From the NCBI GenBank assembly GCA_019247235.1, contig JAFAPG010000045.1:1-31128 (forward strand): a stretch of DNA of 31,128 nt. Reading direction: 5' to 3'. Source of the stretch: Acidobacteriota bacterium. GTDB taxonomy: Bacteria; Acidobacteriota; Terriglobia; Terriglobales; Acidobacteriaceae. Under the pieces are notes generated by a model. That model was not told the DNA's origin and ran no database searches. It was given only the letters and a program-made list of their open reading frames with translations. A program made the position numbers and the translations under genes. Positions 8,334 to 22,542 of the stretch are shown here, piece by piece. Each line of letters begins with the position of its first letter. The first letter of the stretch is position 1.

Positions 8334-10553
8334 TTATCGAGTGACGCGGAAATTCAAAGTCGCTGCTGTGGGGGTGATGGAGTTCGCGGTCGGATTGCAG
8401 TACTGAAAGTTTACGTTGTTCGCGGTCGGCCAGACGCTGACCACTAGCTGCGCGGGATTCGCGGCCGGCGCGGCGTTGTAACTCCAGGTGATGGCGTCGG
8501 TCGTCGCTACCCCGGTTGCTCCTACCGTGACCGTCGTGCCGCAAGCTCCTGATGCAATCGCGGCCGTGGTCATCGTCGCCGTGCCTGCCGCAAGCGACTG
8601 GGTCATGTTAAAGTAAGTGCCGTTATTGATTGAGCACTTGAGAACGTGATTGGTGGAGTCGCCATAACACCAGTCTTGTCCGCTTACGCCCGCGCCGTTG
8701 TTCGGTGTTCCGGTTTCGTAAAACGTGAGGCTGGGAATTTTTGGCCCGATCGATTTGAAGCTATTGTCGACAAACTCCGCTCCTCCCCCGGTGACGGTGA
8801 AGCTGTTCAAGCCGACTTGAACGGCCGCTGCGGTCGCTCCTGAATCGATTTGTAAGCCGTTCGCGTTGGTGAGTGACACCGGACCATAGTTGCGGTCAAT
8901 CAAGACGCGAAAGCTAGCGGTCTGAACTCGAATGGCCGCAATCGCCGAGTTGGTTCCGCTAGACCCCAAGCGGATGAAGTTGCCCGCGATTTCCGCGTCT
9001 CCGATTCCGATGAACTGGACGCCCATGTCGGTGACATCGATAAAGTTGTCCCGAACGTACTGCTGCCCACTTCCCGAGGTCTCGACCCTGACGCCTGCCA
9101 CCTGGCCGAAGGAGATCAAATTGTTGGTGAGGTGTACGTCGCCCGAGTCGCGAAAGTAAACCCCGTACGAAGAGCCGTTGGTCTGATTGAAGTCGTCGAT
9201 CGCGTTATGATCGATCCAGCTGTCGGCGCAGCCCCAGCAATAGATCCCCGCGGGCGCCGTTCCCGCCGAATCGTTTCTAAAACTGGTTTGCGCGGCAATG
9301 AGGTTGTTGTAATGAATGAAGAAGCCGCCGACCCCGCCACCAGCCGATGCCGGAGAACTCAGGCTGCCGTTATCCACCGCGACTGAGTGCGAAGTGGCGT
9401 TCTTGATTTCCAAGTGATCGAGGTAGGTGGTATTCACCTTCCCCATGTGAATGTCATAGACGGCTGAAGATTGGTTTTGGGCGTTCCCGTCGATCGAGAG
9501 GAAGGCAACCCGGGTCCAGTAGATAGTTCCGGCCGTCTGCCCGGTTTCGGCCGCATTGACCCCGATCAGGACGACAGAATGGTTGAGCGAGTTCGCGGCC
9601 TTTAGCGTCGTCTTTTCTGGCCCGGCTCCGATTAGCTCCATTCCCGAGACAAACTGAATCGGGGTCGAAACCGTGTAAGCGCCCTGAGCCAGCAGAATGG
9701 TGCAGCCCCCGGGCGCGGCCACTGGGCCGACACCAGGAGTGACTTGCGGCCCGGTGTAACTCGGGCAAGTCGCACTTGCCGAATTGATCCAGGCTCCTGG
9801 GTCCGAGCCTCCCCAGCCGGCAGAATTTGCGGTATCGACGCAGCGTATCTTTTGAAACTGGTTACAGGTGGCGGTCCCGGTCAGCGTCACCGTGCTCGAA
9901 AAGGTGTTCGCGCCGGAAAAGGTGTTATTGCCGGAATAGGTTCCCGCGCCCGAGGCATTGATCGCCGATGCATTCACGTTCCAGCGATTGCCGGTTGAGC
10001 CAAGCGAAAGCGTACCGCTGCCTGTGGGAGTAACGTTTGCCTGGAAGGGTTGGTTGGCGCCGTCGAGCCGGGCATAAGTAGTATCCCCGGTTGGCGAGCT
10101 GACGACTGGGTTAGTGGTGATCGGAGCCACCTGGGAGATATCTAGCGTGGTGCCTGATTTCGCATGGACGGGCACCTCCGGTCCGGCTTTGCCGTTGAAC
10201 CAGGCTTGCATGCCGTACCAGACGGCCGTAGTCGAACCCCCGCAATTGATATCCCCGCCGAGCAGGCCGGTTGAATCGCGGGTTGAGTAAAGCGTCCCTG
10301 AGACGGCGCCGGATGAGTTCGCGGCAAGGTCGAAATAGAACACTCCCCCCTGAGAAGGCGCGATGAGCGAGGTTCCAGAGACGCGCGGCTGGTTCCCTCC
10401 GCAGCCTCGGAGCCAAAAGCGCATGAAGGCGTTCGGCGTGGTTGCCCCTGTCCCCAGGTTTTGCATGGTGCCGGTAACCGTGGTCGTGGCCTGGACGATG
10501 GCCGGCACAAAGAGCAAGGCGAGAAGTCGAATGAGTCGTTTCATCATCATCAT
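8334..10553 (-). CDS. Beta-helix tailspike with signal peptide and tail-fibre-N-like domain (start is one of four tandem ATGs)
   Basis: MKRLIRLLALLFVPAIVQA|T; TILLAQGAY..MELIGAG beta-helix entry; N-terminal TVTGTMQN..FMRFWL resembles lambda Stf N-terminal domain. Confidence 0.8.
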   Translation of the reverse strand: MMMMKRLIRLLALLFVPAIVQATTTVTGTMQNLGTGATTPNAFMRFWLRGCGGNQPRVSGTSLIAPSQGGVFYFDLAANSSGAVSGTLYSTRDSTGLLGGDINCGGSTTAVWYGMQAWFNGKAGPEVPVHAKSGTTLDISQVAPITTNPVVSSPTGDTTYARLDGANQPFQANVTPTGSGTLSLGSTGNRWNVNASAINASGAGTYSGNNTFSGANTFSSTVTLTGTATCNQFQKIRCVDTANSAGWGGSDPGAWINSASATCPSYTGPQVTPGVGPVAAPGGCTILLAQGAYTVSTPIQFVSGMELIGAGPEKTTLKAANSLNHSVVLIGVNAAETGQTAGTIYWTRVAFLSIDGNAQNQSSAVYDIHMGKVNTTYLDHLEIKNATSHSVAVDNGSLSSPASAGGGVGGFFIHYNNLIAAQTSFRNDSAGTAPAGIYCWGCADSWIDHNAIDDFNQTNGSSYGVYFRDSGDVHLTNNLISFGQVAGVRVETSGSGQQYVRDNFIDVTDMGVQFIGIGDAEIAGNFIRLGSSGTNSAIAAIRVQTASFRVLIDRNYGPVSLTNANGLQIDSGATAAAVQVGLNSFTVTGGGAEFVDNSFKSIGPKIPSLTFYETGTPNNGAGVSGQDWCYGDSTNHVLKCSINNGTYFNMTQSLAAGTATMTTAAIASGACGTTVTVGATGVATTDAITWSYNAAPAANPAQLVVSVWPTANNVNFQYCNPTANSITPTAATLNFRVTR

Positions 10554-10801
10554 TGGCCGTACATCCGTCGATAGAAGTTCTGCAGGTTCCCCATGGCTGG
10601 CGAGCGCTGGCTGAAAGGGTTCTGGCCCGCCTGGGGCGTAGGATTCTGCTGCTGCATCTGGCCTGAATCCTGAAAGTTGGGCGGCAAGAGCGGCGTCTGC
10701 GGGTTGACCGCCTGAGGCTGAACCGCGTTCACCGAGTTGGCCGCGTCCGATGAGCCATAGGGCGCGGAAGGCAGCATGTACTTGGGCGGAACCTGTCCCA
10801 T
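10550..10801 (-). CDS. Small Q/P-rich putative ejection/internal virion protein (MGQV...)
   Basis: TAAGGA SD; low complexity; stop overlaps tailspike start. Confidence 0.7.
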   Translation of the reverse strand: MGQVPPKYMLPSAPYGSSDAANSVNAVQPQAVNPQTPLLPPNFQDSGQMQQQNPTPQAGQNPFSQRSPAMGNLQNFYRRMYGQ

Positions 10802-10835
10802 TTTGGGAATTCCTTAGTGTGAAAAGAGTTGCAGC

Positions 10836-10864
10836 TTGCTAGCTAAGCGGTAAGGTGGCACAAT
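10836..10864 (+). promoter_or_regulatory. Sigma70-type promoter for the antisense membrane gene
   Basis: TTGCTA (10836..10841), 17 nt, CACAAT (10859..10864) with extended -10 TG at 10856..10857. Confidence 0.55.
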
Positions 10865-10872
10865 GCGAGACG

Positions 10873-11037
10873 GTGACACTGGAGAGAGCGTTTGCCTTTT
10901 CGGTTCTCGTTGCTGCGGGATGGGCTGCTGACAAGTGGCTCTATCCGCGCCTGGGAGCGCCGCGCGTAATCGCCTGGCTGCTCTTTGCTGGTGTCGGAAT
11001 TTTGGTCTGGCTCGTGATGAACGCTGGATTACGCTGA
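10873..11037 (+). CDS. 54-aa two-TM protein, moron/superinfection-exclusion candidate (leaderless GTG)
   Basis: Two hydrophobic helices; occupies a 300-bp gap in the minus-strand operon; GTG lies at the predicted transcription start. Confidence 0.55.
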   Translation: MTLERAFAFSVLVAAGWAADKWLYPRLGAPRVIAWLLFAGVGILVWLVMNAGLR

Positions 11038-11100
11038 TGCGATTCCCCGACTGGGTACTCCCGGAACAGCGCATGCCTTGGGGGGATTATTTTCGCCCTG

Positions 11101-12123
11101 CTACTGCCCCCGCCTTGCCTTTGCTTGCGCAACTGACCTTTGTAGAACATCGGTCAAGTCGCCCGAACCCGAAGCCTGGGAATCCGTGCCGCCGCTCCTT
11201 ACGCCAGGTGTCTTTGTATATTTTACGGGCCGATCGGCCGTCCCCGTCAAGACGCTCTTAGGCGTTCGAGCCCTGGTGTTTCGTGCCCAGCCTTCCGCCT
11301 CACCTTGCCGCCGCAATGCTTCGCTCTCCCCTTCCGCTTGATTTCGTACTTGATCTTGAATTTGCGCAGTCTCAGCGATGTCTTCCGCACTGCCCGGCAA
11401 CGGACCCTTGCCCGGCGAGAACTGCATCTGCGCCTTTGGCGGCATCCAGGGGAGTTGAGCTTGCGGTGTCGGCGCGGGAGCTTCGACGGGCGAAGGTTGC
11501 GCGGCTCTGACTTGTGGAGCGGCAGTTTCGGCTTCCGCTTCCGCTGCTGCTCCTTCTCCCTTGCCACCAGTGAAAAGAAACGGCAGCCACTCAGCCGCAG
11601 AAGGAATGAAGCGTCCGACTCCGGGGATTTGCCTAGCCTGGTGGACCGCCTGCTGAGCCACCATGGCTGTAATGACCGGATGCTGTGCTGCTTGGCGGCC
11701 AAGAAAAGGGAGCGCCACTCTGCCAGCTGCTCCCACTCCCGTAGTAGCCGCAAGCGCTCCAGCACCCATGAGCGCATCTTCCGGGGTGGGATTCGAGGCA
11801 GCATCGGCGGCGTAGATGTTTCGATTCATTCTTTGCAGGTCGGGGTCGCTGTTGTCCTGTTTCCCAAGACGCGATTGCTGCATTTGCCGTGCCGCTACTT
11901 GACGCGACGGCGGGGCTCCGGCCGCCGATGGTGGGGCGAACAGGTCTGGCCTTGTTAGCTGAACTTTCTGAGTCGCGCGCGAGACGTACTGTTGCGTATC
12001 TTCGTCACTCAGCGACCCAAAGCTCTGATCTCCAGTGGCGCGCGAGAGTACAGCCCGTTGATCGCCTGGAGCTAGAGCCTGGAAATCCTTGTCGGCGATG
12101 AGGGCGGCGAGATCAGAAGCCAT
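11101..12123 (-). CDS. Putative DNA ejection protein
   Basis: Ala/Gln/Pro-rich with Gly/Ala hydrophobic stretch LMGAGALAATTGVGAAG; position between nozzle and tailspikes. Confidence 0.7.
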   Translation of the reverse strand: MASDLAALIADKDFQALAPGDQRAVLSRATGDQSFGSLSDEDTQQYVSRATQKVQLTRPDLFAPPSAAGAPPSRQVAARQMQQSRLGKQDNSDPDLQRMNRNIYAADAASNPTPEDALMGAGALAATTGVGAAGRVALPFLGRQAAQHPVITAMVAQQAVHQARQIPGVGRFIPSAAEWLPFLFTGGKGEGAAAEAEAETAAPQVRAAQPSPVEAPAPTPQAQLPWMPPKAQMQFSPGKGPLPGSAEDIAETAQIQDQVRNQAEGESEALRRQGEAEGWARNTRARTPKSVLTGTADRPVKYTKTPGVRSGGTDSQASGSGDLTDVLQRSVAQAKARRGQ

Positions 12124-13759
12124 GTTTTTTTAGGAGTGAATCGACGTTGCCGGAGGAAGCCGCTGCCTGTTGTCCGTACTGGCGCACAAGATAGCGGTTG
12201 GTTCCGACGAGCGCAGATTTTCGGGCCGAGATGTCCTGGCGCATGATCGCGATGGCCCCAGCCAGCTGTCCCTTTGAGTAACTGGCACGCAAGAGCGAAA
12301 GCGCCTGATCGCGGCCAGTGTCCGAGGAGATTCCGCCACCCATGACTTTGCTGTACTCGTCCGCAAGCCCGAGCATGGCGGTGTGAAAATTCGACGCAGC
12401 AGTTGATCCGAATTCCGTCGACGCTGCGTTGAAAACCTTATTGAGCGTGGCTTCATCGAACTGTGGCAGATTGGATGCCTGTTTCTCCGCGATCTCTATG
12501 GCTCCACCCTTCTCGGTCATGCCGTTGATCATCTTCAGCGTGTTCTGGGTCTGCGGGTTCCGAGCATACTGGTAGTCGCTCGATGCTTGCGCGATGTCGA
12601 AGGGCTTCCCGTACTTCTGCTGGGAGTACTTATCGGCACGGTCGAGAATGATGGGATATCCCTTGTCATCCTTCTTCAGCTGCGACGGGTCCATGTCGCC
12701 TTCGACCAATCGCCGTGCAGTTGAATCAATTACGCTCCCGTTGCCGCCACCAGCAGCATTGCTATTGCTGCCACCCGCAGGAGCTCCAGCGCGGCGAGCT
12801 CCGCCGCTCGATGCTTGCGGGACACCTGAATTTGCGGGCAGCTGTTTGGTTTTCGTGCTGGTTGTGGTAAGCCCGAGCGGGTCAGTGGTACTCGTGGTCG
12901 TCGGTGCCGCATTGATCTGGTTTCGCTCGAGCTGTGCGAGATTGGCGACGGTCATAGGCTTGCCGACGAAGTTCGCGGGAAGACCGTAATCCTGAGCCAT
13001 CTCCGATGTGATGGTGACGCCTTGTTCCGAGCCGGGCAGTAGTTGGCGAGATTGCGTGTCGTACAGCCCAACTCCCGGTACCGCCATGAATCGTTTGTTA
13101 ACTTCAGCCGCCTGAACTCGACCCTGCGCCCCGATATCGGCACTCTGAACGCGGCTCTGGCCACCGATCTTGGCGGCGTCAACTTTTCCTTGGTACCCCA
13201 GATATGGGCTCAGGATCTTCGAGGCCAGCGCGGCCGGCATGTTTCCGTAAGGGGTCTCGACTGGCTGTAAGCCTGCCTGCGCAAGTCCCGTTTCCGCTTG
13301 TTCCTTCTCGAGCTGGAGCGGCATCGCCGCCCGCAGAAATGGAAGTTGATAGCCTGCCTGAAATCCTGTCCCTACGCCTCCCGATCTTCGTCCGCCCGAC
13401 TGAATGACAGCTTGTTCTGAAGCCGCGCGGCCGGCGAGTGCGCCCTGTAGCCCGCTCATCAGAAGCGTTGCCAGTTTCCCGCCCTTGGTGAGCGCCGGGC
13501 TCATCGCGTTAGGAATTCCTGCCGGTCCGGTTGCCGCTGCTTGTTGCAGGTTTGGTGTCCCCATTGTGGGTAGATTGTTCGCGTTCGGCCCCTGAGAATC
13601 TTTGTTAGACAAAAGAAACGCTGGTTGGGTCTGGTCGATAGCTTGATTCGCCCGGCTCATAACCTGTTGCGGAGAGCCGACAAACGTAGGCTGGCCTTGG
13701 GAATTGCTGAGCATGGAGTTTGGAACCGTCAGCCCCGCCGATTCGAATAAGTGTCCCAT
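12113..13759 (-). CDS. Putative DNA ejection/transfer protein (MGHL...)
   Basis: Gly-rich hydrophobic N-terminal region, 11-residue repeats, helical C-terminal domain; GAGGA SD. Confidence 0.75.
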   Translation of the reverse strand: MGHLFESAGLTVPNSMLSNSQGQPTFVGSPQQVMSRANQAIDQTQPAFLLSNKDSQGPNANNLPTMGTPNLQQAAATGPAGIPNAMSPALTKGGKLATLLMSGLQGALAGRAASEQAVIQSGGRRSGGVGTGFQAGYQLPFLRAAMPLQLEKEQAETGLAQAGLQPVETPYGNMPAALASKILSPYLGYQGKVDAAKIGGQSRVQSADIGAQGRVQAAEVNKRFMAVPGVGLYDTQSRQLLPGSEQGVTITSEMAQDYGLPANFVGKPMTVANLAQLERNQINAAPTTTSTTDPLGLTTTSTKTKQLPANSGVPQASSGGARRAGAPAGGSNSNAAGGGNGSVIDSTARRLVEGDMDPSQLKKDDKGYPIILDRADKYSQQKYGKPFDIAQASSDYQYARNPQTQNTLKMINGMTEKGGAIEIAEKQASNLPQFDEATLNKVFNAASTEFGSTAASNFHTAMLGLADEYSKVMGGGISSDTGRDQALSLLRASYSKGQLAGAIAIMRQDISARKSALVGTNRYLVRQYGQQAAASSGNVDSLLKKHGF

Positions 13760-13763
13760 CGCG

Positions 13764-14024
13764 TTACCGTCCTCTCCCTCGCTTCGGTTTGACGCCCATC
13801 ATGGTTCCCGCTGAGGTCGTATCTCCGTACGGCTGCATCTGGCGCGCCGCAAATTCCGTACCCACGCTCGCGGGAGTGGGAGCCTGGGGAATGAACGGCC
13901 CACCTGTGGGATTGAGACCCCCTGAGTTCGGGTCGTACTGCGGCCAGTTGTTCAGGCCGGCAAGCTTCTGGCGCACTCCGTCGAACGCTCCCGCGCCGGT
14001 TGAACTAGCTGGAATCTGTCCCAC
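13764..14024 (-). CDS. Small putative ejection protein (GTG start, MGQI...; ORF-track start 14255 is too far upstream)
   Basis: GGAAGG SD 9 nt before GTG; GTG 2 nt after upstream TAA. Confidence 0.65.
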   Translation of the reverse strand: MGQIPASSTGAGAFDGVRQKLAGLNNWPQYDPNSGGLNPTGGPFIPQAPTPASVGTEFAARQMQPYGDTTSAGTMMGVKPKRGRGR

Positions 14025-14026
14025 GG

Positions 14027-14329
14027 TTAGCTGCCTTCCCCGTAACCATAGAAAAACGGGTTCTTGGTCGGACGCGGTCCTGAGCCGCCCGGGGTAAAGT
14101 TTTGCGCGCTGAATTGAATGTTCGAGGGAACTGCCGCGGCCACTTGCGGCATTGCGCCTCCCCCGCCCTGGCGCATCTGGGAGTTCTGCTGCTGCATATT
14201 CGAAAAGCCGTTCAGCAGACCTTTGCCCGCGCCGCCCAAGAAGCGCGCGCCCCACTCAGAACCCGAGAATCCGGACGGGTCCGCGTCAAAGGTGTTCGGA
14301 TTTTTAAACGCTGCTCCTACTTGTCCCAT
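14027..14329 (-). CDS. Small G/Q-rich putative ejection protein (MGQV...)
   Basis: AGGAG SD; low complexity. Confidence 0.7.
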   Translation of the reverse strand: MGQVGAAFKNPNTFDADPSGFSGSEWGARFLGGAGKGLLNGFSNMQQQNSQMRQGGGGAMPQVAAAVPSNIQFSAQNFTPGGSGPRPTKNPFFYGYGEGS

Positions 14330-14341
14330 AGCGAGTGTCTC

Positions 14342-14887
14342 CTAAAAAGGAAGTGCCGAAGCCATGCCGCCAGCGAGTCCTCCGAGCAATCCCCCAAGAC
14401 CAGGGGATGCGAGCGGCGCGTTCATCACGCTAGCGTTCCCTTGAATGGCTTGACCGGAGTACTGTGCCGGGTTGGCGATCTGGGCTTGCCCGAGCAGTCC
14501 TGAGGCGCCGGCCTGGCGTGCAGCGAAATTTGAGCCAAGATTCTGTTGTAGCTGCTGATCGAACGCTCGCGCCTGTTGTGAGGCGAGATCGGTGCGCGCC
14601 TGCTCGGCGAAGCCTGAGGGAAGCATGTTGGTCTGTTGTCCGAGCTGCCGCTCGAGCTGCGCCTTGGCCGGCTGAAATGCCTGCGCCGTGGTGCCCGATG
14701 AAGCGTCGGTCAAGCTGTTGAAGTAAGGCAGGCCCTTATCCATCATCGACGTATAGAAGGGATTGGCCTTATTCTGTTGCGCCTGCTGAAACTGAAACTG
14801 CTGGCCGAAAACATTCGACAGCTGGTTATCGAGGTTGGCTTGCGCCGTAGCTGCCTGTTTTTGTTGCGGGCTTGGTCCGCCGCCCAT
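14342..14887 (-). CDS. Putative DNA pilot/ejection protein, P22 gp7/T7 gp14 position (MGGG...)
   Basis: AAGGGGAG SD; Gln/Ala-rich helix with C-terminal GLGGLLGGLAGG. Confidence 0.8.
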   Translation of the reverse strand: MGGGPSPQQKQAATAQANLDNQLSNVFGQQFQFQQAQQNKANPFYTSMMDKGLPYFNSLTDASSGTTAQAFQPAKAQLERQLGQQTNMLPSGFAEQARTDLASQQARAFDQQLQQNLGSNFAARQAGASGLLGQAQIANPAQYSGQAIQGNASVMNAPLASPGLGGLLGGLAGGMASALPF

Positions 14888-14900
14888 AATGTATCTCCCC

Positions 14901-15347
14901 TTAAATCTTGACGCTCAGCCGGTCCGCAGGCTGCGCTCCCACTGCACGGAGCGATTCTTTCCATTTTGCGCAGCGCTGTTCCGGGCGCTCTTTTGAGCTG
15001 ATGTGAATAAAGGCTTCATGCCCACGCGCGCCTTGATCCTGAAAAAATCCCCTCATGCGGTCGGTCAGCATCTTCGTGGCTCGTACCGCGTGATCTCCCG
15101 AGACGCGAAACACCGGAAGATCGATCCGCATGACGTAGCCGGTAATCCCCAGGATCTCCTTGTAGGAGCCGTCGGCATCAAGTGATACCGCCACCCAAAC
15201 TTTGGCGAAGCGCGCGAGGTTCAAATCTTTGCCGCCTTCAAGTTCACGCGCGCAGTAGTCAACCGCGAGGTCGTGGAGCTTTTTGTCGACTGGCTCTAAG
15301 AGCGCGCCCTGGCCTTGAAAGTCGAGCGGATAAACTGCGATTCGCAT
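14901..15347 (-). CDS. GNAT-fold-like protein (position of T7 gp13-type acyltransferase-like genes)
   Basis: alpha-beta pattern KVWVAV...ILGITGY...; TGATG coupling to the Hint gene; position before ejection genes. Confidence 0.55.
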   Translation of the reverse strand: MRIAVYPLDFQGQGALLEPVDKKLHDLAVDYCARELEGGKDLNLARFAKVWVAVSLDADGSYKEILGITGYVMRIDLPVFRVSGDHAVRATKMLTDRMRGFFQDQGARGHEAFIHISSKERPEQRCAKWKESLRAVGAQPADRLSVKI

Positions 15348-16198
15348 CAGTTGCCGTAGGGCTTCAAGTTGTGCGCGAAGCGCCCATTCACCAGGCGGTA
15401 GCAGTGGTCATCGTCGAGCTTTGAAGGTGTATCGAGCTCGAGGTTATAGACCTTGCCCGAAAATTCGACGCGGGGATAGCGTTCGGTGTTCTTCAAAACC
15501 TCCGCCGCCGGCTTCCAATAGCCATAACCGGCAAACATCAGATGCTCAGGCGTAACCAGCTCGCCTTTCCCCATGTCGATCATCTCGCCAGAAAAGTCGT
15601 GCACTTCGACAAACGCTACACGCTTCCACCCAAGCCGCGAGCAGACGCGATCGCCAATTACCAGTTCCTCGATCGGCTTTAGGCGATGCAGGGTAAAAAC
15701 CCGCGTGTTGCCGGAGAAGCAGGCTCCTCCGTAGCGGCTGACTGAAGTTGCCGAAGGCGCGTAGTCGGTCGTATAGGTTGGAGGGGTTACGGGCATCGCC
15801 GGCGCGCCAGTCTCGGCCGTCGCCGAGCCTTGAATCATCACCTTTTGCGATTCGCGGCCAATCTTTGAAACCGAAGAAATGAAAAAGTTCGTGGTTGGTG
15901 GCGTCGTGCCGGCCGTGCAATCGACGAAGTGCTGAGTTGCCAGGGGATCGCGAATCTCAGCGAACAGCGAAGTTTCAGAATCCTTGTACACCCGGTAGCC
16001 GGCGAGGTCGGTAGCATAAAACGGAGGCCGCCAATTAAGCAGCACGCCCCGCGGCGCGGCGGTTGCAATGACGTCGCGCGGTGGATCGGGTTTACGGTCG
16101 GTTCCTCGGGTGATAGTTGTGTCCTGCGCGTCCCGGCGCGCCTGAATACGTTCGTTCGGGGTCATGTTGATCCCGTAGTTACGCCGAATGATCTTCAC
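15347..16198 (-). CDS. FN3-like domain + Pro/Thr linker + C-terminal Hint (intein-like) domain
   Basis: PDPPRDV...VLLNWRPP...LAGYRVY...FFISSVSKIGRES (FN3); GGA|CFSGNT, VTPEH, VYNL...NGRFAHN (Hint). Confidence 0.85.
   Translation of the reverse strand: MKIIRRNYGINMTPNERIQARRDAQDTTITRGTDRKPDPPRDVIATAAPRGVLLNWRPPFYATDLAGYRVYKDSETSLFAEIRDPLATQHFVDCTAGTTPPTTNFFISSVSKIGRESQKVMIQGSATAETGAPAMPVTPPTYTTDYAPSATSVSRYGGACFSGNTRVFTLHRLKPIEELVIGDRVCSRLGWKRVAFVEVHDFSGEMIDMGKGELVTPEHLMFAGYGYWKPAAEVLKNTERYPRVEFSGKVYNLELDTPSKLDDDHCYRLVNGRFAHNLKPYGN
15368..15721 (-). other. Hint/BIL-type autoprocessing domain (Cys160..Asn277), no homing endonuclease
   Basis: Block A Cys-Phe, block B TxxH, terminal His-Asn followed by Leu. 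Confidence 0.85.
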
Positions 16199-16204
16199 CG
16201 CGGC

Positions 16205-18787
16205 TTATCTTTCGCGCTCGTCGCCAATCGCAGGAATCAGTTCGTACAGTCGCCCGTAGGTCTCAAGCGGCACGTGCGGAGGAGAGTTCAGTGCGAGATT
16301 TCCATCCGCCGAGTGCGAGCTCAGCTGAAAGCGCAAATACACGTGCTGAATTTCTGGCGCCGAAAGGTAAGCACGATAAAGCGAATCATTCTCGGCTCCC
16401 TGGACGGCTTGCGCCGGGTTGTCAGACGGGGTGAGGGCTTCAAATGCAAACTGCGCGCCCGCGGCCAGGGAGGTTGAAAGCGTCTTGCCCACGGAGACGT
16501 TAATCAGCGAGTCGCCGTACCAGTCGATGAACGGCACGCTTGGGCGATCCGTTCCTCCGTTTACGAGCAAGATCAAATCCGCGGCGTACTGATTTCCGAT
16601 GTCATCCGCTCCGGAATAGAGCTGATAGAGCTGGCCGTTGGTTGAGCCGGCATAAATCTGGAGCGCCCCAGTCGCGTCTCTCACTTGGGCGACGGTGAAA
16701 GCGTTTGAAAGCTGGCCAACGTACTGCTCGGCGTAGCCTTGGCCATAGACCGAGCCTGGCGCCTGCATATACTCGCGCAGCTTGAAGTCGTGTTTTACGG
16801 TGTAAGGCACGCCCCCGGATTGGCCTTCAATGCGCAGCTCGTCTTTCCCTTGCTGGGCGTTACGGTAGTAGACGAGCTCTACCTGGGAGAGATACGTCGA
16901 ATCGATTTTGAAGAGCTCCGCGGCTTCATATTCGTCTGAGACCACAACCGGCACGCCGTTCTGAAGCGTAACCAGCTGCTTGTCGCCTGAGAGCCAAAAG
17001 AATCCGTGCGAGCCGCATTTCGTGCCCGCGCGCCGCCCCGCTATTCCCACGTTGAAGGGGCCAACCCATTGCTGAATGCCGGCCAGGTTGACCGAGAGCG
17101 CGCAATCGTGGAGCGTGCCCATCAAAATCTCTTGATCAATCTCAAAGATGGCGGTTGCTGCTTCGCCCGTGGGAAAAGTATCGATATCGTTTGCCGCCCA
17201 GCTCTGTTCTGGGCGGCCGGTAACGACTCCCGAACGGTCGTCGGCGAGAGACCCCGAGCGGCGAAGCGTAGGAGATCCGGTGTCGGCGGCGTAACAGTAG
17301 TCTCCTGCCACGGCGAACATATTCGACTGCGCCGGGATGATGCCATTCCTGGTAGGGAGTTCGTGGTTGCCATCGGTGATTGCCTGATAGCCAATCAAGG
17401 ATGTTGAGCCGTTCTGCCCGTACAGCCAATTGCCAGCATTGTCGGTGGCGACATAGGGCACGAGGACTCCGTCGCCGGTTCGCCCAACCAGAAACGACCA
17501 TTCCGTATCGGTCCCTGAGTAGTCGGGCAGGCCTTGAATATGAAAGTTGCAGCGGTTAGGCTGCGCGGCAAAAGACTTCCCTGGAAGATAGCGCCCGCCG
17601 ATCGCGATCCTGTTGCCTGCATGGCCCCCGCCGTTTGGGTTATAGATCGCGCCATAAAACTGGTATCCGGGATTTGAACCGCCCACGGTTGATTGCGCGA
17701 GCCCTCGGTTCTCGTTGGCGATAGGCGTAGGGCCGACTAGGTTCTGAGTCGCCAGCACATCGACCGAGGTGGCGGCGTTCGCGGCCGTCACCGCTTGCGA
17801 GATCGAGCCTCCGCTAGAGGCGACGCTGGGGCCGTAATTCGTATAGGCAAGCGTGGCCGAGTTGGGCACGCTGGCGACCTTATAGACGCCATTGAAACTG
17901 TCATCGGCTACGAGATTCACGACGATGATGTCGCCGACGGAGCGTCCATGTGCGCTCTGGGTACCGATGGTGACCACATTAGCCGCGCGCGAGACGGAGG
18001 CGTTCTGGACGAGCGTTCCTGGCTGGTAAACGAAATAGCCAACGTTCCCGCCGTCGTAAGTCGTGGCAATAACCTTGATCCAATTGGCGTTGACGCCTGA
18101 AAGATTCGGGAGAGTTGCGACGGTTACTTTTTGGTTCAGCGCGACGTTTACCCGCGCGCCTGATCCGGCGACGATGGTCGCTGGCCCGCGTTCGTTGTTT
18201 GAGCTATCAAAAATGGCGACGTAAAAGAGCAAGCCGATTGAAGTTGCCGCCGATTGCCCGCCCCCTGCAGGCGTGAAAGTGATCGAAGTGTTTTCGGCTG
18301 TGGTTAGCTCTCTGACGCCATCGACGATGGTGACGTTTTGCACTTCGGCTGAGGTTGGAGCCCGCAATCCGTTGGTGCGCCAGGTCGTGCCGTCAAACCA
18401 TTTCTGGTCGGTTCCGTTTCCGTAATGGAAGCGATTGTTGGCGAAATAGCCTGCGCCTTTTGCCGAGCTGCCGACCGCCGCGCCTCGCACCGTGGGAGTG
18501 GTGACCACTCCGGTTCCGGTGTTTAAAACCTGGAGCGTCGTGCCGCTCATGAACAGTACGTACTTCGTTCCGTCCCAGGTGCGATAAGGAAACATCGAAT
18601 GAATGGCCGACGATGCGGTTGAATTCATCGTGACCGTCGAATAGCCCCAGCGCAGCTCCCAGAACCCCGCTTGCTTCGGTACCCAGTTCAAGCACCGAAG
18701 TGCCCGATTTCTGGGCATATTGATCGGGTTTGAGCGCGAATCTACGCCGCCCGCGTCAATTTGCTCAAACGGTTGGAGGCGAGCCAT
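16205..18787 (-). CDS. Tail nozzle/stabilization protein (T7 gp12/P22 gp10-like position)
   Basis: 860 aa beta-rich; N-terminus GGVDSRSNP..MP..ALRCLNW..ELRWGY typical of podoviral tubular protein B; follows adaptor. Confidence 0.75.
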   Translation of the reverse strand: MARLQPFEQIDAGGVDSRSNPINMPRNRALRCLNWVPKQAGFWELRWGYSTVTMNSTASSAIHSMFPYRTWDGTKYVLFMSGTTLQVLNTGTGVVTTPTVRGAAVGSSAKGAGYFANNRFHYGNGTDQKWFDGTTWRTNGLRAPTSAEVQNVTIVDGVRELTTAENTSITFTPAGGGQSAATSIGLLFYVAIFDSSNNERGPATIVAGSGARVNVALNQKVTVATLPNLSGVNANWIKVIATTYDGGNVGYFVYQPGTLVQNASVSRAANVVTIGTQSAHGRSVGDIIVVNLVADDSFNGVYKVASVPNSATLAYTNYGPSVASSGGSISQAVTAANAATSVDVLATQNLVGPTPIANENRGLAQSTVGGSNPGYQFYGAIYNPNGGGHAGNRIAIGGRYLPGKSFAAQPNRCNFHIQGLPDYSGTDTEWSFLVGRTGDGVLVPYVATDNAGNWLYGQNGSTSLIGYQAITDGNHELPTRNGIIPAQSNMFAVAGDYCYAADTGSPTLRRSGSLADDRSGVVTGRPEQSWAANDIDTFPTGEAATAIFEIDQEILMGTLHDCALSVNLAGIQQWVGPFNVGIAGRRAGTKCGSHGFFWLSGDKQLVTLQNGVPVVVSDEYEAAELFKIDSTYLSQVELVYYRNAQQGKDELRIEGQSGGVPYTVKHDFKLREYMQAPGSVYGQGYAEQYVGQLSNAFTVAQVRDATGALQIYAGSTNGQLYQLYSGADDIGNQYAADLILLVNGGTDRPSVPFIDWYGDSLINVSVGKTLSTSLAAGAQFAFEALTPSDNPAQAVQGAENDSLYRAYLSAPEIQHVYLRFQLSSHSADGNLALNSPPHVPLETYGRLYELIPAIGDERER

Positions 18788-18789
18788 AG

Positions 18790-19509
18790 CTAGGTCGAGC
18801 GGACCGCGTCTTCAGACATGGCGAGCTGGAGTTTATAGTTTGGGTCGAACTGGCGCTTGGCCATGAGATCGAGGATTCCCTGCTCGTACTCTTCCTTCGC
18901 GTCTTCTGTTTTCTGGTTGGTCGAGCCGTATGCCCACTTGAAAATCTTCCATACCAGCCCCGAGACGATGGTGTTGTGCCCCCAGGCGGGAATGAGCGGC
19001 ACAGCGTCGTTTGTCGAGTCGGTCGCCGGGTTCGGGATCGCCCAGCCCACTACATAAGCCGTATACGCCGCGTCTGGCGGATCCATGCGAATAACGTTGA
19101 TCCCGCTTGGGTCAAGCGTGTAGCGCCCGCCTGGCGCGTTCACGTTTCCCTGCGTAGGCGAGGTAATGGTCGTGTTCTGGATCATCTCGAGCAGAGTCTC
19201 GGGATCGTACATCGGGAGCATTTCGGCCGTCTGAAAGGGATTGGTTGGGATGATGAGCGAAAACTTGGTGATTTCCTCGAGCAGGATCTCGGTCATCGCT
19301 CCGGCTGGCGTGGTCACGACCGAGGTTAGATCATACGTCGGCTGGGCCACGACCGTCTGAAAGCTAAAGACCAGGCGCCGCCACCAAAACCGCTGGCGCT
19401 TACAGATGTCCTGCAAGACCAGGCGGTAGAGGTTGGGCAGGGATAGAACCTTTTCGCCCTTGCGCTCAGAGAGCTGGTTGGCCAGCTCGAGGATTTCGGT
19501 TCGAGTCAT
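18790..19509 (-). CDS. Head-tail adaptor (T7 gp11/P22 gp4-like)
   Basis: MTRTEILELANQL N-terminal helix; PLIPAWGHNTIVSGLVWK..AYG C-terminal motif; position. Confidence 0.7.
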   Translation of the reverse strand: MTRTEILELANQLSERKGEKVLSLPNLYRLVLQDICKRQRFWWRRLVFSFQTVVAQPTYDLTSVVTTPAGAMTEILLEEITKFSLIIPTNPFQTAEMLPMYDPETLLEMIQNTTITSPTQGNVNAPGGRYTLDPSGINVIRMDPPDAAYTAYVVGWAIPNPATDSTNDAVPLIPAWGHNTIVSGLVWKIFKWAYGSTNQKTEDAKEEYEQGILDLMAKRQFDPNYKLQLAMSEDAVRST

Positions 19510-19514
19510 GGGAA

Positions 19515-19598
19515 TTAGTTCAGGGAATCAAGAAAACAGATGAGCCAGACGGCAGAAATCATGCCCAGAAGAAACCAGCAGAGATCGCGAACTTTCAT
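19515..19598 (-). CDS. 27-aa single-TM micropeptide MKVRDLCWFLLGMISAVWLICFLDSLN (not in ORF track)
   Basis: ATG overlaps dehydrogenase stop (ATGA); fills the gap; stop 5 nt before adaptor ATG. Confidence 0.6.
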   Translation of the reverse strand: MKVRDLCWFLLGMISAVWLICFLDSLN

Positions 19599-20887
19599 AC
19601 CGCGCGCGGATCGAGCAGGGCGGCAGATTGCAATGCGCGGTCTTTCGAACTGAGCACGCCGCGCCTCTCGCCTTCCCCGATGCGAATTACTTCAACCCCG
19701 GGAACGTCCGGCATGTAGCGAAAGGGGTCAATGACGATCGAGCCCGGCGCGAACTGATACCGGGTGTAACGCTCGTGCTGGCAGCCGATAAAAACCAGAT
19801 GCGGGGCTTTCGTCACGTCCTTGTCTTCGGTGCACGAGTGGGCCACTCCGCGCCGTTTCAGGATGAAGGAGAGAAGCCTCGCCGGCGATCCGGTGTCGAT
19901 GTTGGTTTCTGGCTTGAACGCCCGCCCCAGGATTACGACCGGAAGCTGGTGCACCTGCCAGCGGTACTCTTCGACGAGGTCTGCCAGGAATTCGCAGTGC
20001 TTTTCGCGGGCCACCATCAGCGACTCGAAGAAGTCGTACGAGAGATTCACATTGCGGGCCAGCCAGGAGAGCGCGATATTGTCGCGCGGGTGGCATCCGC
20101 CTCCGTCGCCCATGCCGGCCTTCAGGTACTTGGTCGAGATAAGGCGTCTGGTCGAAAGCTCGAGCGCCCGGTAGATGTCGTCCACTTTCATGCCGCAGCG
20201 GTGCGCCATCTCGCCGTAAAGATTCGCGAGCACAGTTTTTGCCGTGATGAAGGTGTTGTACAGCACCTTGATGCCTTCGGCGGTGCGGATGTCGGTCTTG
20301 AGCGCCGGCGCGCCATAGCAAATTGTTTCGTAAAAGTGAGCGAGCAGCGTGGCCGCTGCTGGCGAGCGAGCGCCGATCAGCCAAAATTCGGGATTAAGGA
20401 AGTCGTTGTAGACCGTCCCCATGGCGATGAACTGGGGCGAATAGACCAAGTCGAATTTCGCTCCGATGATCGGCAGCACCTCGCGCTCGATCGTCCCCGG
20501 AAGTACCGTCGAGATGACGACGCAGGGCGTCCGTTGAATCAGGTAGCGATTCACTTCTCGGACGCACTCAACCAGATAGTCGTAATTAAAATCCGCGCGC
20601 GTGTCAGGGAGAGGCGTAGCGCCTTCGTAGGCGTCGATGTGCGGTGTCTGGGGTGCCAGGAAAAGAATGTCGGCCCACTGGCAGAGCTCTTCGAGCGAGA
20701 CCATCTCCATCTGCGTCTTTCGGAGCAGCTCTTCGGAATGTGCTTCCTTGAACGGGATCTCGCGCTTCAGTAGATACTGTTTAGGCGCGGCGGAAATGTC
20801 ATAGCCTCGAACCCAGTGGCCGCGCGACTCGATCGAGAGAGCGACCATCAGGCCCAGCTTGCCGCAGCCAACCATGCCCACGTTCAT
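19595..20887 (-). CDS. ugd: UDP-glucose/GDP-mannose dehydrogenase family protein
   Basis: GCGKLG Rossmann motif; PQFIAMG (PEF-like); EGIKVLYNTF; GDGGGCHPRD with catalytic Cys; GRAFKPET. Confidence 0.9.
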   Translation of the reverse strand: MNVGMVGCGKLGLMVALSIESRGHWVRGYDISAAPKQYLLKREIPFKEAHSEELLRKTQMEMVSLEELCQWADILFLAPQTPHIDAYEGATPLPDTRADFNYDYLVECVREVNRYLIQRTPCVVISTVLPGTIEREVLPIIGAKFDLVYSPQFIAMGTVYNDFLNPEFWLIGARSPAAATLLAHFYETICYGAPALKTDIRTAEGIKVLYNTFITAKTVLANLYGEMAHRCGMKVDDIYRALELSTRRLISTKYLKAGMGDGGGCHPRDNIALSWLARNVNLSYDFFESLMVAREKHCEFLADLVEEYRWQVHQLPVVILGRAFKPETNIDTGSPARLLSFILKRRGVAHSCTEDKDVTKAPHLVFIGCQHERYTRYQFAPGSIVIDPFRYMPDVPGVEVIRIGEGERRGVLSSKDRALQSAALLDPRAV

Positions 20888-22542
20888 GCGAGGACCAGCT
20901 CCGGCTTCTGCTCGAAGGCGACGCCGAGCCTCGCCTTCAACTTGCGAATATCTTCAGCCCGCGCGGGTGCAAGGTTTTGGTAGAGCTCGTCCACGTTGTC
21001 CGCTTTATGCCGCTCCAGGCGCTCTTTGTGGGTTTTGTCCCACTCGGCCTTTCCTGTAAGCGGGTGCATGTGCTCGGTGACAAAGGGCAGCGGCACGCGC
21101 CGGCCGATCGCGCTTGCGACTTCGTTCAGCCAGGTATCGTTGTAGTCACTAGAAAAGTAAGGTGGACAGAAATATCCGACCGTCTCGATCCAGGCGCGAT
21201 GCAAAAAGCCATGCGTGCCAAACTGGTCGCCGTACACTCCGTCATCGCCGTGCACGAATACTAGGCGGTCCGGGAAGGCGGCAAAGGCGCGCCGTACGTA
21301 GTCGTCCCAGCCCTTGGTCTTGAAGACGATGTCGTCGCCCGCGTGCATCAGAATTTCGCCAGTTGATACTTCGGCGCAGCGGTTCCACATCTTCGAAAGC
21401 GTGATGCGCGGCCCAAGGACGTTCTTAATCTCTACGCCTTTCCAGAATTCTGGGCCGGGCGTGCAGTCGTCTAAGTCTCGGTAGAGGACAATCTCAGGCA
21501 TTACCGTAGAGGTCTCTAGTAATGAGTCGATCAGCCGTTTGATATTCTCCGGCCTTCCCCTGGTCGGGCAGAGGATTGAAATCTTCATCTCCGGCACGTC
21601 CATCGGATACTGCCCGTGCACCTTGGCTTTCAGGATCGATTGCTCGCGATAAGGCTCAAAATCTCGAATCGAGTAAGAGTAGTGGCCGATGTGTCCAGGC
21701 TGGATTGAGGTGTCGCAGTAGCTCGAGATCCCGGCGTAGCGCTTGGCGACCATGCAGAACCCGACGTCTTCTCCGTACTCGATCGAAGATTTGAATGCTG
21801 GCAGAAATCGGAACCAGTAGCAGAGCTTCTGCTCGTCGAAGGCTTTGAGGCGCGCCGTCTTGATCTCTTCCGCGCGTTCGCTCGAGATCCCATAAAACTC
21901 TTTCTCCCACAGGCAATCAAAGTACGATTGAGCGACTTGCTCGAGCGCGTGCTGAGTGATCAGCATCAGGCCTGTGCCGACGCCTCCAACCTCGAGGAGT
22001 TGCCCTTCCGGCCATTCCCAGATTTGCCCAAAGTCGCCGGTCTCTTCGTTGAAGTGGCGAATGTTTGGAATTGGCGGGTCGGTCCTCCGGGTACAGAGTC
22101 CGGCCACGATGTCCTTTTTATGGGAAAGCAATTTCTCGAGGTGGTCTTCTTCGACCACGATGTCATCGTCGACAAAGAGAATGTGCGTCCAGGGCTTCCC
22201 GCTCTTTAGCTGTTCGGTAATCAGGCCGTTCCGTGACCAGTGCACAACCGAGGCTGAAAGCGGCGCGCCTGCGTAAACCGTGGCGATATCTTTCTCCCGG
22301 GTGTAACGCACCATGCGGCCAAGCGCGTCTTGCATCTGCGGCTCAGGGGCGCGGTACGTGGGGCAGAGAATGCATACGATGGGCTTCTGCTCGGCAGGGT
22401 TCTGTTTCTGGTCCTCGGGCGCCTCAACCGAGATGCCGTAATCTTTGAGTGCGGCGCGGCCGTTCGCCGAGAGCAAGAGCAGTTTCGCGCGCTTACGCCA
22501 TTTCTCCGCCTTCTGCGCTTCGAGTTTGTCTTTGAGGCTCAT
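20884..22542 (-). CDS. Glycosyltransferase with two tandem GT-A (GT2-like) domains
   Basis: Domain 1 ILCPTY..SRN..LFVDDD..GTGLMLI..GEDVGFC..GHIG; domain 2 ILCPTRGRP..WN..GDD..DYNDTW..EHMH. Confidence 0.88.
   Translation of the reverse strand: MSLKDKLEAQKAEKWRKRAKLLLLSANGRAALKDYGISVEAPEDQKQNPAEQKPIVCILCPTYRAPEPQMQDALGRMVRYTREKDIATVYAGAPLSASVVHWSRNGLITEQLKSGKPWTHILFVDDDIVVEEDHLEKLLSHKKDIVAGLCTRRTDPPIPNIRHFNEETGDFGQIWEWPEGQLLEVGGVGTGLMLITQHALEQVAQSYFDCLWEKEFYGISSERAEEIKTARLKAFDEQKLCYWFRFLPAFKSSIEYGEDVGFCMVAKRYAGISSYCDTSIQPGHIGHYSYSIRDFEPYREQSILKAKVHGQYPMDVPEMKISILCPTRGRPENIKRLIDSLLETSTVMPEIVLYRDLDDCTPGPEFWKGVEIKNVLGPRITLSKMWNRCAEVSTGEILMHAGDDIVFKTKGWDDYVRRAFAAFPDRLVFVHGDDGVYGDQFGTHGFLHRAWIETVGYFCPPYFSSDYNDTWLNEVASAIGRRVPLPFVTEHMHPLTGKAEWDKTHKERLERHKADNVDELYQNLAPARAEDIRKLKARLGVAFEQKPELVLA

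Follow-up and report, generated by a model that had tools for sequence, protein, structure and literature searches.

Within the Hint (Hedgehog/intein) superfamily, some Hint-fold domains have lost activity, and the Hint domain of Hedgehog transfers its N-side product to cholesterol. Bacterial intein-like (BIL) domains of type A have a first cysteine (Cys1) and a terminal His-Asn, without a nucleophile at position +1; they mostly cleave, at both junctions and splicing only to a minor extent, and can ligate via the freed alpha-amine (PMC4031507). Such domains were described by Amitai 2003 and Dassa 2004, and include the C. thermocellum BIL of PDB 2LWY, as summarised in PMC4031507. In BIL2 of the Tetrahymena BUBL proteins a lysine of the C-side flank is the nucleophile, which leads to an isopeptide bond (PMC8616854). 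The PT-HINT domains of polymorphic toxins act as releasing peptidases near the C-terminal end of the protein (PMC3482391). The present analysis concerns a Hint domain at the extreme C-terminus of a 283-residue FN3-like protein, encoded on contig JAFAPG010000045.1 of assembly GCA_019247235.1; the whole contig, 31,128 nucleotides long, was analysed and is called the window. The reading that we favour, at a probability of roughly 0.6, is that this is an FN3 protein which, in this lineage only, carries a facultative, type A BIL-like C-terminal Hint that would remove itself.

The gene and its parts lie as follows; residue numbers are those of the 283-residue protein throughout, and the evidence for each feature is given in brackets.

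15347..16198, minus strand: FN3-linker-Hint gene, 283 residues, GTG start, TGA stop (list of open reading frames, translation)
16094..16198, minus strand: residues 1–35, N-terminal segment MKxIxRxYG...RGT, kept in all orthologs (alignment; R31, G32 and T33 invariant)
15824..16093, minus strand: residues 36–125, FN3/Ig-like domain, conserved core of the family (Pfam, PDB profile matches)
15722..15823, minus strand: residues 126–159, Pro/Thr-rich linker ending ...SRYGGA (translation)
15368..15721, minus strand: residues 160–277, Hint domain, 118 residues from Cys160 to Asn277 (family profile, structure model, Foldseek)
15719..15721, minus strand: Cys160 (TGC), predicted to be the nucleophile that attacks the scissile bond Ala159-Cys160 in the N-S acyl shift (alignment, raw codon)
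15542..15553, minus strand: Thr216-Pro-Glu-His219, the block-B TxxH motif (alignment, raw codons)
15368..15373, minus strand: His276-Asn277 (CAC AAC), block G, for Asn cyclisation and C-side cleavage (alignment, codons)
15350..15367, minus strand: residues 278–283, tail LKPYGN, with Leu278 at +1 and Lys279 at +2 (translation)

The identity of the C-terminal domain was established by structure and by profile. A model of the Hint part only (residues 146–283), built with AlphaFold2 on an alignment of 92 Hint sequences, has a mean predicted local distance difference test score (pLDDT) of 90 and a predicted TM-score of 0.83. All 34 matches that Foldseek finds for it in the PDB at E ≤ 0.001 are BIL, intein or Vint structures, all of the Hint superfamily; BUBL BIL2 of Tetrahymena ranks first (6y75, 7e-7), followed by gp41-1, Npu DnaE, Vint 8r2c and the BIL domain 2lwy. 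The profile of the 92 sequences matches the window protein at 140 bits (E = 3e-45), and its top matches among PDB sequences are likewise Hint proteins (Vint 8r2c, the gp41-1 intein, PI-SceI and BIL 2lwy). Pfam models of the Hint clan fall on the same junction (Vint 5.9e-5, Hint 1e-3, Hint_2 0.07) without reaching their gathering thresholds (23.4 vs 27, 19.2 vs 29.7 and 13.9 vs 28.4 bits, respectively), although some members of the family do exceed the Vint threshold. NCBIfam and PHROGs have no match for the 283-residue protein itself. The C-terminal domain is a genuine member of the Hint superfamily.

Across the 92 aligned sequences Cys1, the His of block B and the closing His-Asn do not vary, and the Thr of block B hardly does. 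The motifs listed in a preliminary description of this DNA are all present in the window protein: YGGA/CFSGNT with Cys160 (a slash marks a domain junction here and below), TPEH at residues 216–219, AHN at 275–277 and the tail LKPYGN, which is followed by the stop codon; the codons of Cys160, TPEH and HN were checked on the raw sequence. The domain is a genuine Hint, as that description had claimed, and the residues for an N-S acyl shift (Cys1, Thr/His) and for Asn cyclisation (His-Asn) are in place. It was also right that canonical splicing is not to be expected, because Leu278 at position +1 is no nucleophile, and autoprocessing at the N-terminal junction is probably the chemistry. The products that it predicted, of about 17 and 14 kDa, have computed masses of about 17.4 and 14.3 kDa. 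Its Hedgehog-like GG/CF junction has to be given up: the residue before Cys is Ala, and the closest relative reads SRSS/CF, so this feature is not conserved.

A canonical intein would use the class 1 pathway to join LKPYGN to the FN3 part. Blocks A, B and G are present, and the class 1 mini-inteins gp41-1, Npu DnaE and Ssp DnaB share the fold, these blocks and a size of about 120–140 residues (Foldseek 4e-6 to 1e-4). In addition, the tails of Hint-less sister proteins, ...GGELK... and ...GGDVK..., loosely resemble YGGA joined to LK. Unlike these inteins, however, the window domain has Leu rather than Cys, Ser or Thr at +1, no functional C-extein and no endonuclease, and it sits as a sporadic end-cassette in a variable tail instead of a conserved site of an essential protein. 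A precise insertion into an empty site (GGELK or GGDVK against YGGA/Hint/LK) was considered and set aside as too weak, since the nearest Hint-bearing relative reads SRSS/Hint/LKP. With Cys at +1 in none of the 138 family modules described below, splicing of this kind is hardly credible here.

The remainder of the protein is best understood from its orthologs. An FN3-like domain had been proposed before, and profile comparisons support it: the profile of the ortholog family matches FN3 domains of Neogenin (4e-6) and RPTP-delta (4.7e-5) in the PDB, and a phmmer search of PDB sequences finds an FN3 domain of RIM-BP (1e-4). With the single sequence, Pfam gives Ig_RIMBP2 (0.0023) and fn3 (0.096) for this region, both below threshold. 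The GTG start is supported because orthologs conserve the N-terminus MK[IV]I[LR]RxYG. The linker, whose last part (residues 146–155, the first ten modelled) has a pLDDT of 49, forms the N-side flank of the Hint with its end ...SRYGGA, which would become the mature C-terminus after the predicted cleavage.

Two word-based searches, together with viral contigs, gave 48 close orthologs of the FN3 protein. Hint and any other extension are absent from 45 of them; these proteins have 133–175 residues and stop within about ten residues of the linker end, a few residues beyond the junction of the window protein. Only the window protein (P0001) and P0003, at locus L002, carry this Hint. No remnant of it was found in the Hint-less loci inspected (L001, L004, L007, L010 and L012), which have no room for one because the next gene abuts or overlaps the FN3 stop. 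The N-side product of the window protein, at 159 residues, is about as long as the Hint-less orthologs, most of which have 155–169. In a tree of the FN3 core, both Hint carriers make up a single clade (100/96) deep inside Hint-less sequences, with three Hint-less proteins as its sister group (100/96). Presence of the Hint does not follow overall relatedness either: the neighbouring 860-residue virion protein is 74.9% identical to its counterpart in the Hint-less L001 vs 73.9% in the Hint-bearing L002. The preliminary description took the Hint for a built-in step of tail maturation; as the domain is sporadic among close relatives, with 45 of 48 orthologs in the same slot lacking it, that proposal is not supported. 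To judge from these sequences, the module is facultative and dispensable for the FN3 protein.

The remaining ortholog, P0015 (L003:85-873), has a different, 110-residue C-terminal extension, joined earlier in the linker (...TYQGNRG/CPLSG...IGHN/NKNIGGNG). The extension does not match the hidden Markov model of this Hint family (2.5 bits); its likeness to PT-HINT and intein-splicing clusters is confined to language-model features.

Between the window and L002 the proportion of nonsynonymous differences is 0.137 in the Hint vs 0.168 in the FN3 core, while synonymous sites are saturated (0.69–0.79); the catalytic residues are all kept. The Hint is under purifying selection and not decaying. Such selection equally fits an intein-like element that requires excision and a useful function, and does not discriminate between the two. 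A recent foreign origin was rejected on composition: the GC content of the Hint is 0.56 against 0.58 in the window, and its third-position GC content is near that of the FN3 part; both values agree with the genome. Selection on the whole domain would also suit a catalytically silent Hint with a structural role, which the mature protein would keep at its C-terminus; the inactive Hint-fold domains mentioned above are a precedent. Against this stand the catalytic positions, all of which are kept in the window, in its relative and in the family, and the orthologs, which show no need of a C-terminal domain; we consider a silent Hint highly improbable.

The wider family places the window module in context. 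A HMMER all-against-all search with residues 156–283 gives 221 representative clusters at E ≤ 1e-3, 66 of them at E ≤ 1e-10; the following figures refer to 138 complete modules in 133 proteins. The module lies at most 12 residues from the C-terminus of its protein in 118 of the 138, with a commonest spacing of 4 and tails mostly of 3–7 residues; a second Hint follows directly in eight, and a long C-terminal region in six. Position +1 is mostly K, V, A, F, I, L or M, with Ser in six modules, Thr in six and Cys in none, and the two residues preceding Cys1 are mostly Gly. There is no endonuclease insert, as the median module length is 114 residues. Of the 118 short tails, 66 have a lysine among positions +1 to +3, against a background of 2.5%. 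The carrier proteins, which range from fewer than 100 to 3916 residues among the matches listed, include proteins with the lectin-type domains Laminin_G_3, PA14 and CBM and PHROG tail fibre, tail, head-decoration and virion proteins; one resembles the baseplate protein megatron of gene transfer agents. A scan of viral contigs with a 12-sequence Hint alignment found seven relevant viral loci, where mostly poly-Gly, the Hint and a tail of 3–6 residues end proteins of 355–1367 residues. From the same scan, L021 and L022 look like ordinary inteins with Cys at +1 and were set aside. By the published definition the family resembles type A BILs, sited at the extreme end of phage virion proteins, and its spread over many surface-protein carriers fits a portable end-cassette.

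Some carriers depart from this layout. Tandem Hints, separated by 3–6 residues, stand at the C-terminus of P0029, P0031, P0032, P0039, P0051, P0090, P0106 and P0162, and the linkers between them contain lysine in all five cases inspected (e.g. HN-KIS-C, HN-LKAGGG-C). Tandem copies are hard to reconcile with simple self-removal, and may reflect the repeated appending of a cassette. In P0102, P0105, P0115, P0132, P0152 and P0161 the Hint is N-terminal or central and is followed by a long C-terminal region, a real C-side flank, which in several of these proteins opens with a similar Thr/Tyr-rich, Cys-containing stretch (e.g. ...TYTYQKAVTVTGLYQCTTAGTSG...).

The favoured reading, a self-removing appendage of type A BIL kind, can be put as a series of steps. 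After folding, Cys160 would attack the Ala159-Cys160 bond in an N-S acyl shift aided by Thr216 and His219, giving a thioester. Asn277 would then cyclise with the help of His276, releasing the hexapeptide LKPYGN. The thioester might be hydrolysed, or be attacked by the hexapeptide, either by its alpha-amine in the manner of type A BILs or by Lys279 in that of BUBL BIL2. The 13.6-kDa Hint would be discarded, leaving a protein of about 17.4 kDa essentially equal to the Hint-less orthologs. On this reading the Hint would be a portable cassette of phage surface-protein ends, dispensable for FN3 function here, and we propose that its catalytic residues are preserved since an appendage of 14 kDa, left uncleaved on a virion protein, would do harm.

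With type A BIL domains the window module shares the Hint fold, Cys1, TxxH, His-Asn, the lack of a +1 nucleophile and of an endonuclease, and a variable, non-essential location; the defining residues are Cys160, His276-Asn277 and Leu278. The match to 2lwy is at 7e-5 and 20% identity by Foldseek and only at E = 0.007 by profile. The setting differs, since the BILs described so far have real C-terminal flanks within secreted or hypervariable proteins of bacteria, whereas the present module closes phage virion-module proteins, with 3–7 residues after it, and probably belongs to a separate sequence family. BUBL1 BIL2 of Tetrahymena thermophila (PDB 6Y75/6TMM) shares Cys1 and the terminal Asn, and the window tail has Lys at +2. 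That system is, however, eukaryotic, with ubiquitin-like flanks, and conjugates ubiquitin-like proteins; sequence identity is only 17%, and use of the tail lysine in the window protein is a conjecture. Like the Hedgehog Hog/Hint domain (PDB 1AT0), in which an external nucleophile resolves the thioester, the module is the C-terminal Hint of a two-part precursor with a small residue before Cys-Phe. Hedgehog differs in having a sterol-recognition region and no His-Asn end, whereas His-Asn is invariant here and six residues follow it; 1at0 is also a weaker structural match (3.7e-3, rank 46), and Gly-Gly before Cys is not kept in the nearest relative. PT-HINT likewise is a self-cleaving Hint near the end of long surface proteins, some of which have tail-fibre repeats, but it releases a C-terminal toxin domain where only a hexapeptide follows the Hint here. 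A functional analogue is Peptidase_S74, the intramolecular chaperone of phage tailspikes and fibres, a C-terminal module which removes itself after folding; its fold is unrelated, its chemistry is Ser-Lys, and it is required for trimer folding, in contrast to the dispensable Hint of the FN3 protein.

The same thioester could also serve ligation. In that case it would hand the carboxyl group of ...YGGA over to another virion protein, at a lysine or an N-terminal amine, or to a component of the host envelope, so that the FN3 domain would be attached irreversibly. Hedgehog, with its transfer to cholesterol, offers one precedent. The best structural match, BUBL BIL2, offers another: it creates an isopeptide bond with a lysine, and other proteins become conjugated to its N-side domain (PMC8616854). 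The presence of the Hint family on surface and adhesin-type phage proteins, the occurrence of such modules on the FN3 family in several lineages, the purifying selection on the Hint and the enrichment of lysine in the tails are all consistent with coupling. On the other hand, 45 of the 48 close orthologs manage without the Hint in otherwise syntenic phages, no partner gene co-varies with it (the downstream genes discussed below are present regardless), and the conserved His-Asn with its short tail points to an intramolecular resolution of the BIL-A or BUBL kind. Coupling therefore seems an unlikely, if conceivable, function, and it is with the same reserve that we mention the broader idea of a portable covalent-coupling cassette, captured repeatedly by phages for joining exposed proteins to the virion or the host surface.

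The FN3-family profile recognises two further Hint-bearing proteins, P0110 (4e-34) and P0104 (1e-12). P0110, which is seen on at least 24 contigs, occupies the same slot in a distant phage (L026), whose adaptor, 860-residue homologue and 148-residue homologue are 27%, 37% and 32% identical to those of the window; used as a query on viral contigs, it found nothing. L026 also encodes a polyvalent protein of more than 2000 residues with ddrB-ParB and LPD38 domains (L026:8604-10819), a few genes further downstream than FN3-Hint. FN3-hosted Hints fall in three places on the Hint tree, and an approximately unbiased test, run on a 46-row subset of 139 Hint modules, rejects a single clade of all four (p = 0.012). 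Two histories fit. In one, FN3 and Hint were fused long ago, and at least six losses followed in the close group; in the other, Hints were captured two or three times. If P0104 is a true member of the FN3 family, there were at least two captures; that the module is facultative holds under either history.

Several points weigh against a self-removing passenger. We infer cleavage from the conserved residues only, and the route of thioester resolution is likewise a proposal. Modules have settled repeatedly on the same small FN3 family (the window clade, the L026 lineage and P0104), and P0015 perhaps carries another Hint-type module; such recurrence is unexpected for a mere passenger and hints at some benefit. 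Neither the strong conservation of His-Asn nor the lysine-enriched tail is explained by simple N-terminal cleavage, and the Hint has no homing endonuclease by which it might spread. A single clade of the three syntenic Hints (window, L002 and L026) is also not rejected by the test (p = 0.19), and the FN3-Hint fusion may be ancient and have been lost many times.

The surroundings of the gene are those of a phage. The contig belongs to an SU10-like podovirus, binned in a 4.5-Mb assembly, and its genes include an SU10 major capsid protein (6.7e-29), the SU10 adaptor and a beta-helix spike. Among 50,697 phage records, the search for cultured relatives gave one weak match only, to the major capsid protein. 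No second copy of the Hint was found in the window or in its 4.5-Mb assembly. The immediate neighbours are as follows.

15345..15349, minus strand: TGATG, in which the stop of the Hint gene shares one base with the ATG of the 148-residue gene (sequence)
14901..15347, minus strand: 148-residue neighbour of weakly GNAT/PanZ-like fold, a core gene of the phage group (homologs, structure model, Foldseek)
16205..18787, minus strand: 860-residue virion structural protein, nozzle position (phrog_3287; synteny in L001, L007 and L026)
18790..19509: SU10-type adaptor gene, directly before the 860-residue gene (Pfam SU10_adaptor, 1e-8)

Within the SU10-like group FN3 belongs to the core genes and is placed after the 860-residue nozzle-position gene; in the window it begins six bases past the stop of the latter. 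The order adaptor, protein of 860–957 residues, FN3, protein of about 140 residues and protein of 181 residues is kept in L001, L004, L007 and L009–L012. The placement of the gene between nozzle and ejection genes, as first described, stands as a position, with the SU10 adaptor (Pfam 1e-8) upstream of the 860-residue gene; both functional labels are positional inferences. Residues 12–186 of the 860-residue protein match the PDB chain "Structural protein" 26fb_K (8.5e-6), and it has no other annotation. Between the capsid and adaptor genes the window has UDP-glucose/GDP-mannose dehydrogenase and glycosyltransferase-like genes (19595-22542); relatives carry radical-SAM genes at this position (L001:1-2486; L007:1-2405), and the placement is kept across the phage group.

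The TGATG overlap that had been reported with the downstream gene at 15347 is real, and FN3 genes of Hint-less relatives abut or overlap their next gene too. The 148-residue product of this downstream gene has no Pfam match; none of its 50 homologue clusters is Pfam-annotated, and no clean Q/RxxGxG/A motif was found in it by eye. Its AlphaFold2 model (pLDDT 84.5) has PanZ 4crz_B as best Foldseek match (E = 1.8e-3, TM 0.56/0.63), other GNATs following at E values of 0.016–1, so that the earlier label "GNAT-like" is kept here only as a weakly supported description. PanZ is a GNAT-fold activator of PanD self-cleavage. The three genes after the 148-residue gene (10550-15347, minus strand) start with Met-Gly (MGGGP..., MGQ[VI]G..., MG...).

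From this arrangement one might imagine a single dedicated maturation system, in which the Hint thioester, the GNAT-like protein and the Met-Gly proteins downstream act together. The stop/start overlap couples the FN3-Hint and 148-residue genes, the best structural match of the 148-residue protein activates the self-cleavage of another protein, and the three Met-Gly starts would suit the scheme. However, the 148-residue gene and the Met-Gly starts are conserved in the Hint-less L004, L007, L010 and L012; the profile of the 148-residue family matches all FN3 loci and none of the unrelated Hint loci L014–L022; tblastn of the window proteins on L024 and L025 found the Hint part alone; and Pfam finds no GNAT in four genes downstream of unrelated Hint-bearing proteins. 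The assignment to GNAT is itself weak. The link to the Hint made in the preliminary description is therefore not specific: the gene follows FN3 in every relative, with or without Hint, and is absent beside unrelated Hint genes. Lacking co-occurrence with the Hint, such a joint system is unsupported and very unlikely. The GNAT-like gene and the Met-Gly starts may be a feature of their own, and a GNAT-fold protein beside proteins with N-terminal Gly might act in the N-terminal modification of internal or ejection proteins, independently of the Hint.

The literature searches brought up ordinary phage inteins, reviews of BIL domains and toxin-releasing HINTs, but nothing that describes Hint modules at the C-terminus of phage virion proteins. 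In these searches a large Hint family capping phage tail, fibre, lectin and decoration proteins was found in no paper; it represents a type A BIL-like Hint in a new architecture and setting. The value of the locus lies in a natural comparison: closely related phages carry one and the same gene at one position, some with the module and others lacking it. This comparison shows the module to be dispensable for its host protein and yet kept catalytically intact, and independent of the GNAT-like gene. Ligation, if it takes place, would be a novel route by which phages assemble or attach their particles, and the modules could serve as compact self-cleaving or ligating tags. If the modules are indeed coupling cassettes, tailed phages would possess an energy-independent protein ligation comparable to the chemistry of BUBL and Hedgehog.

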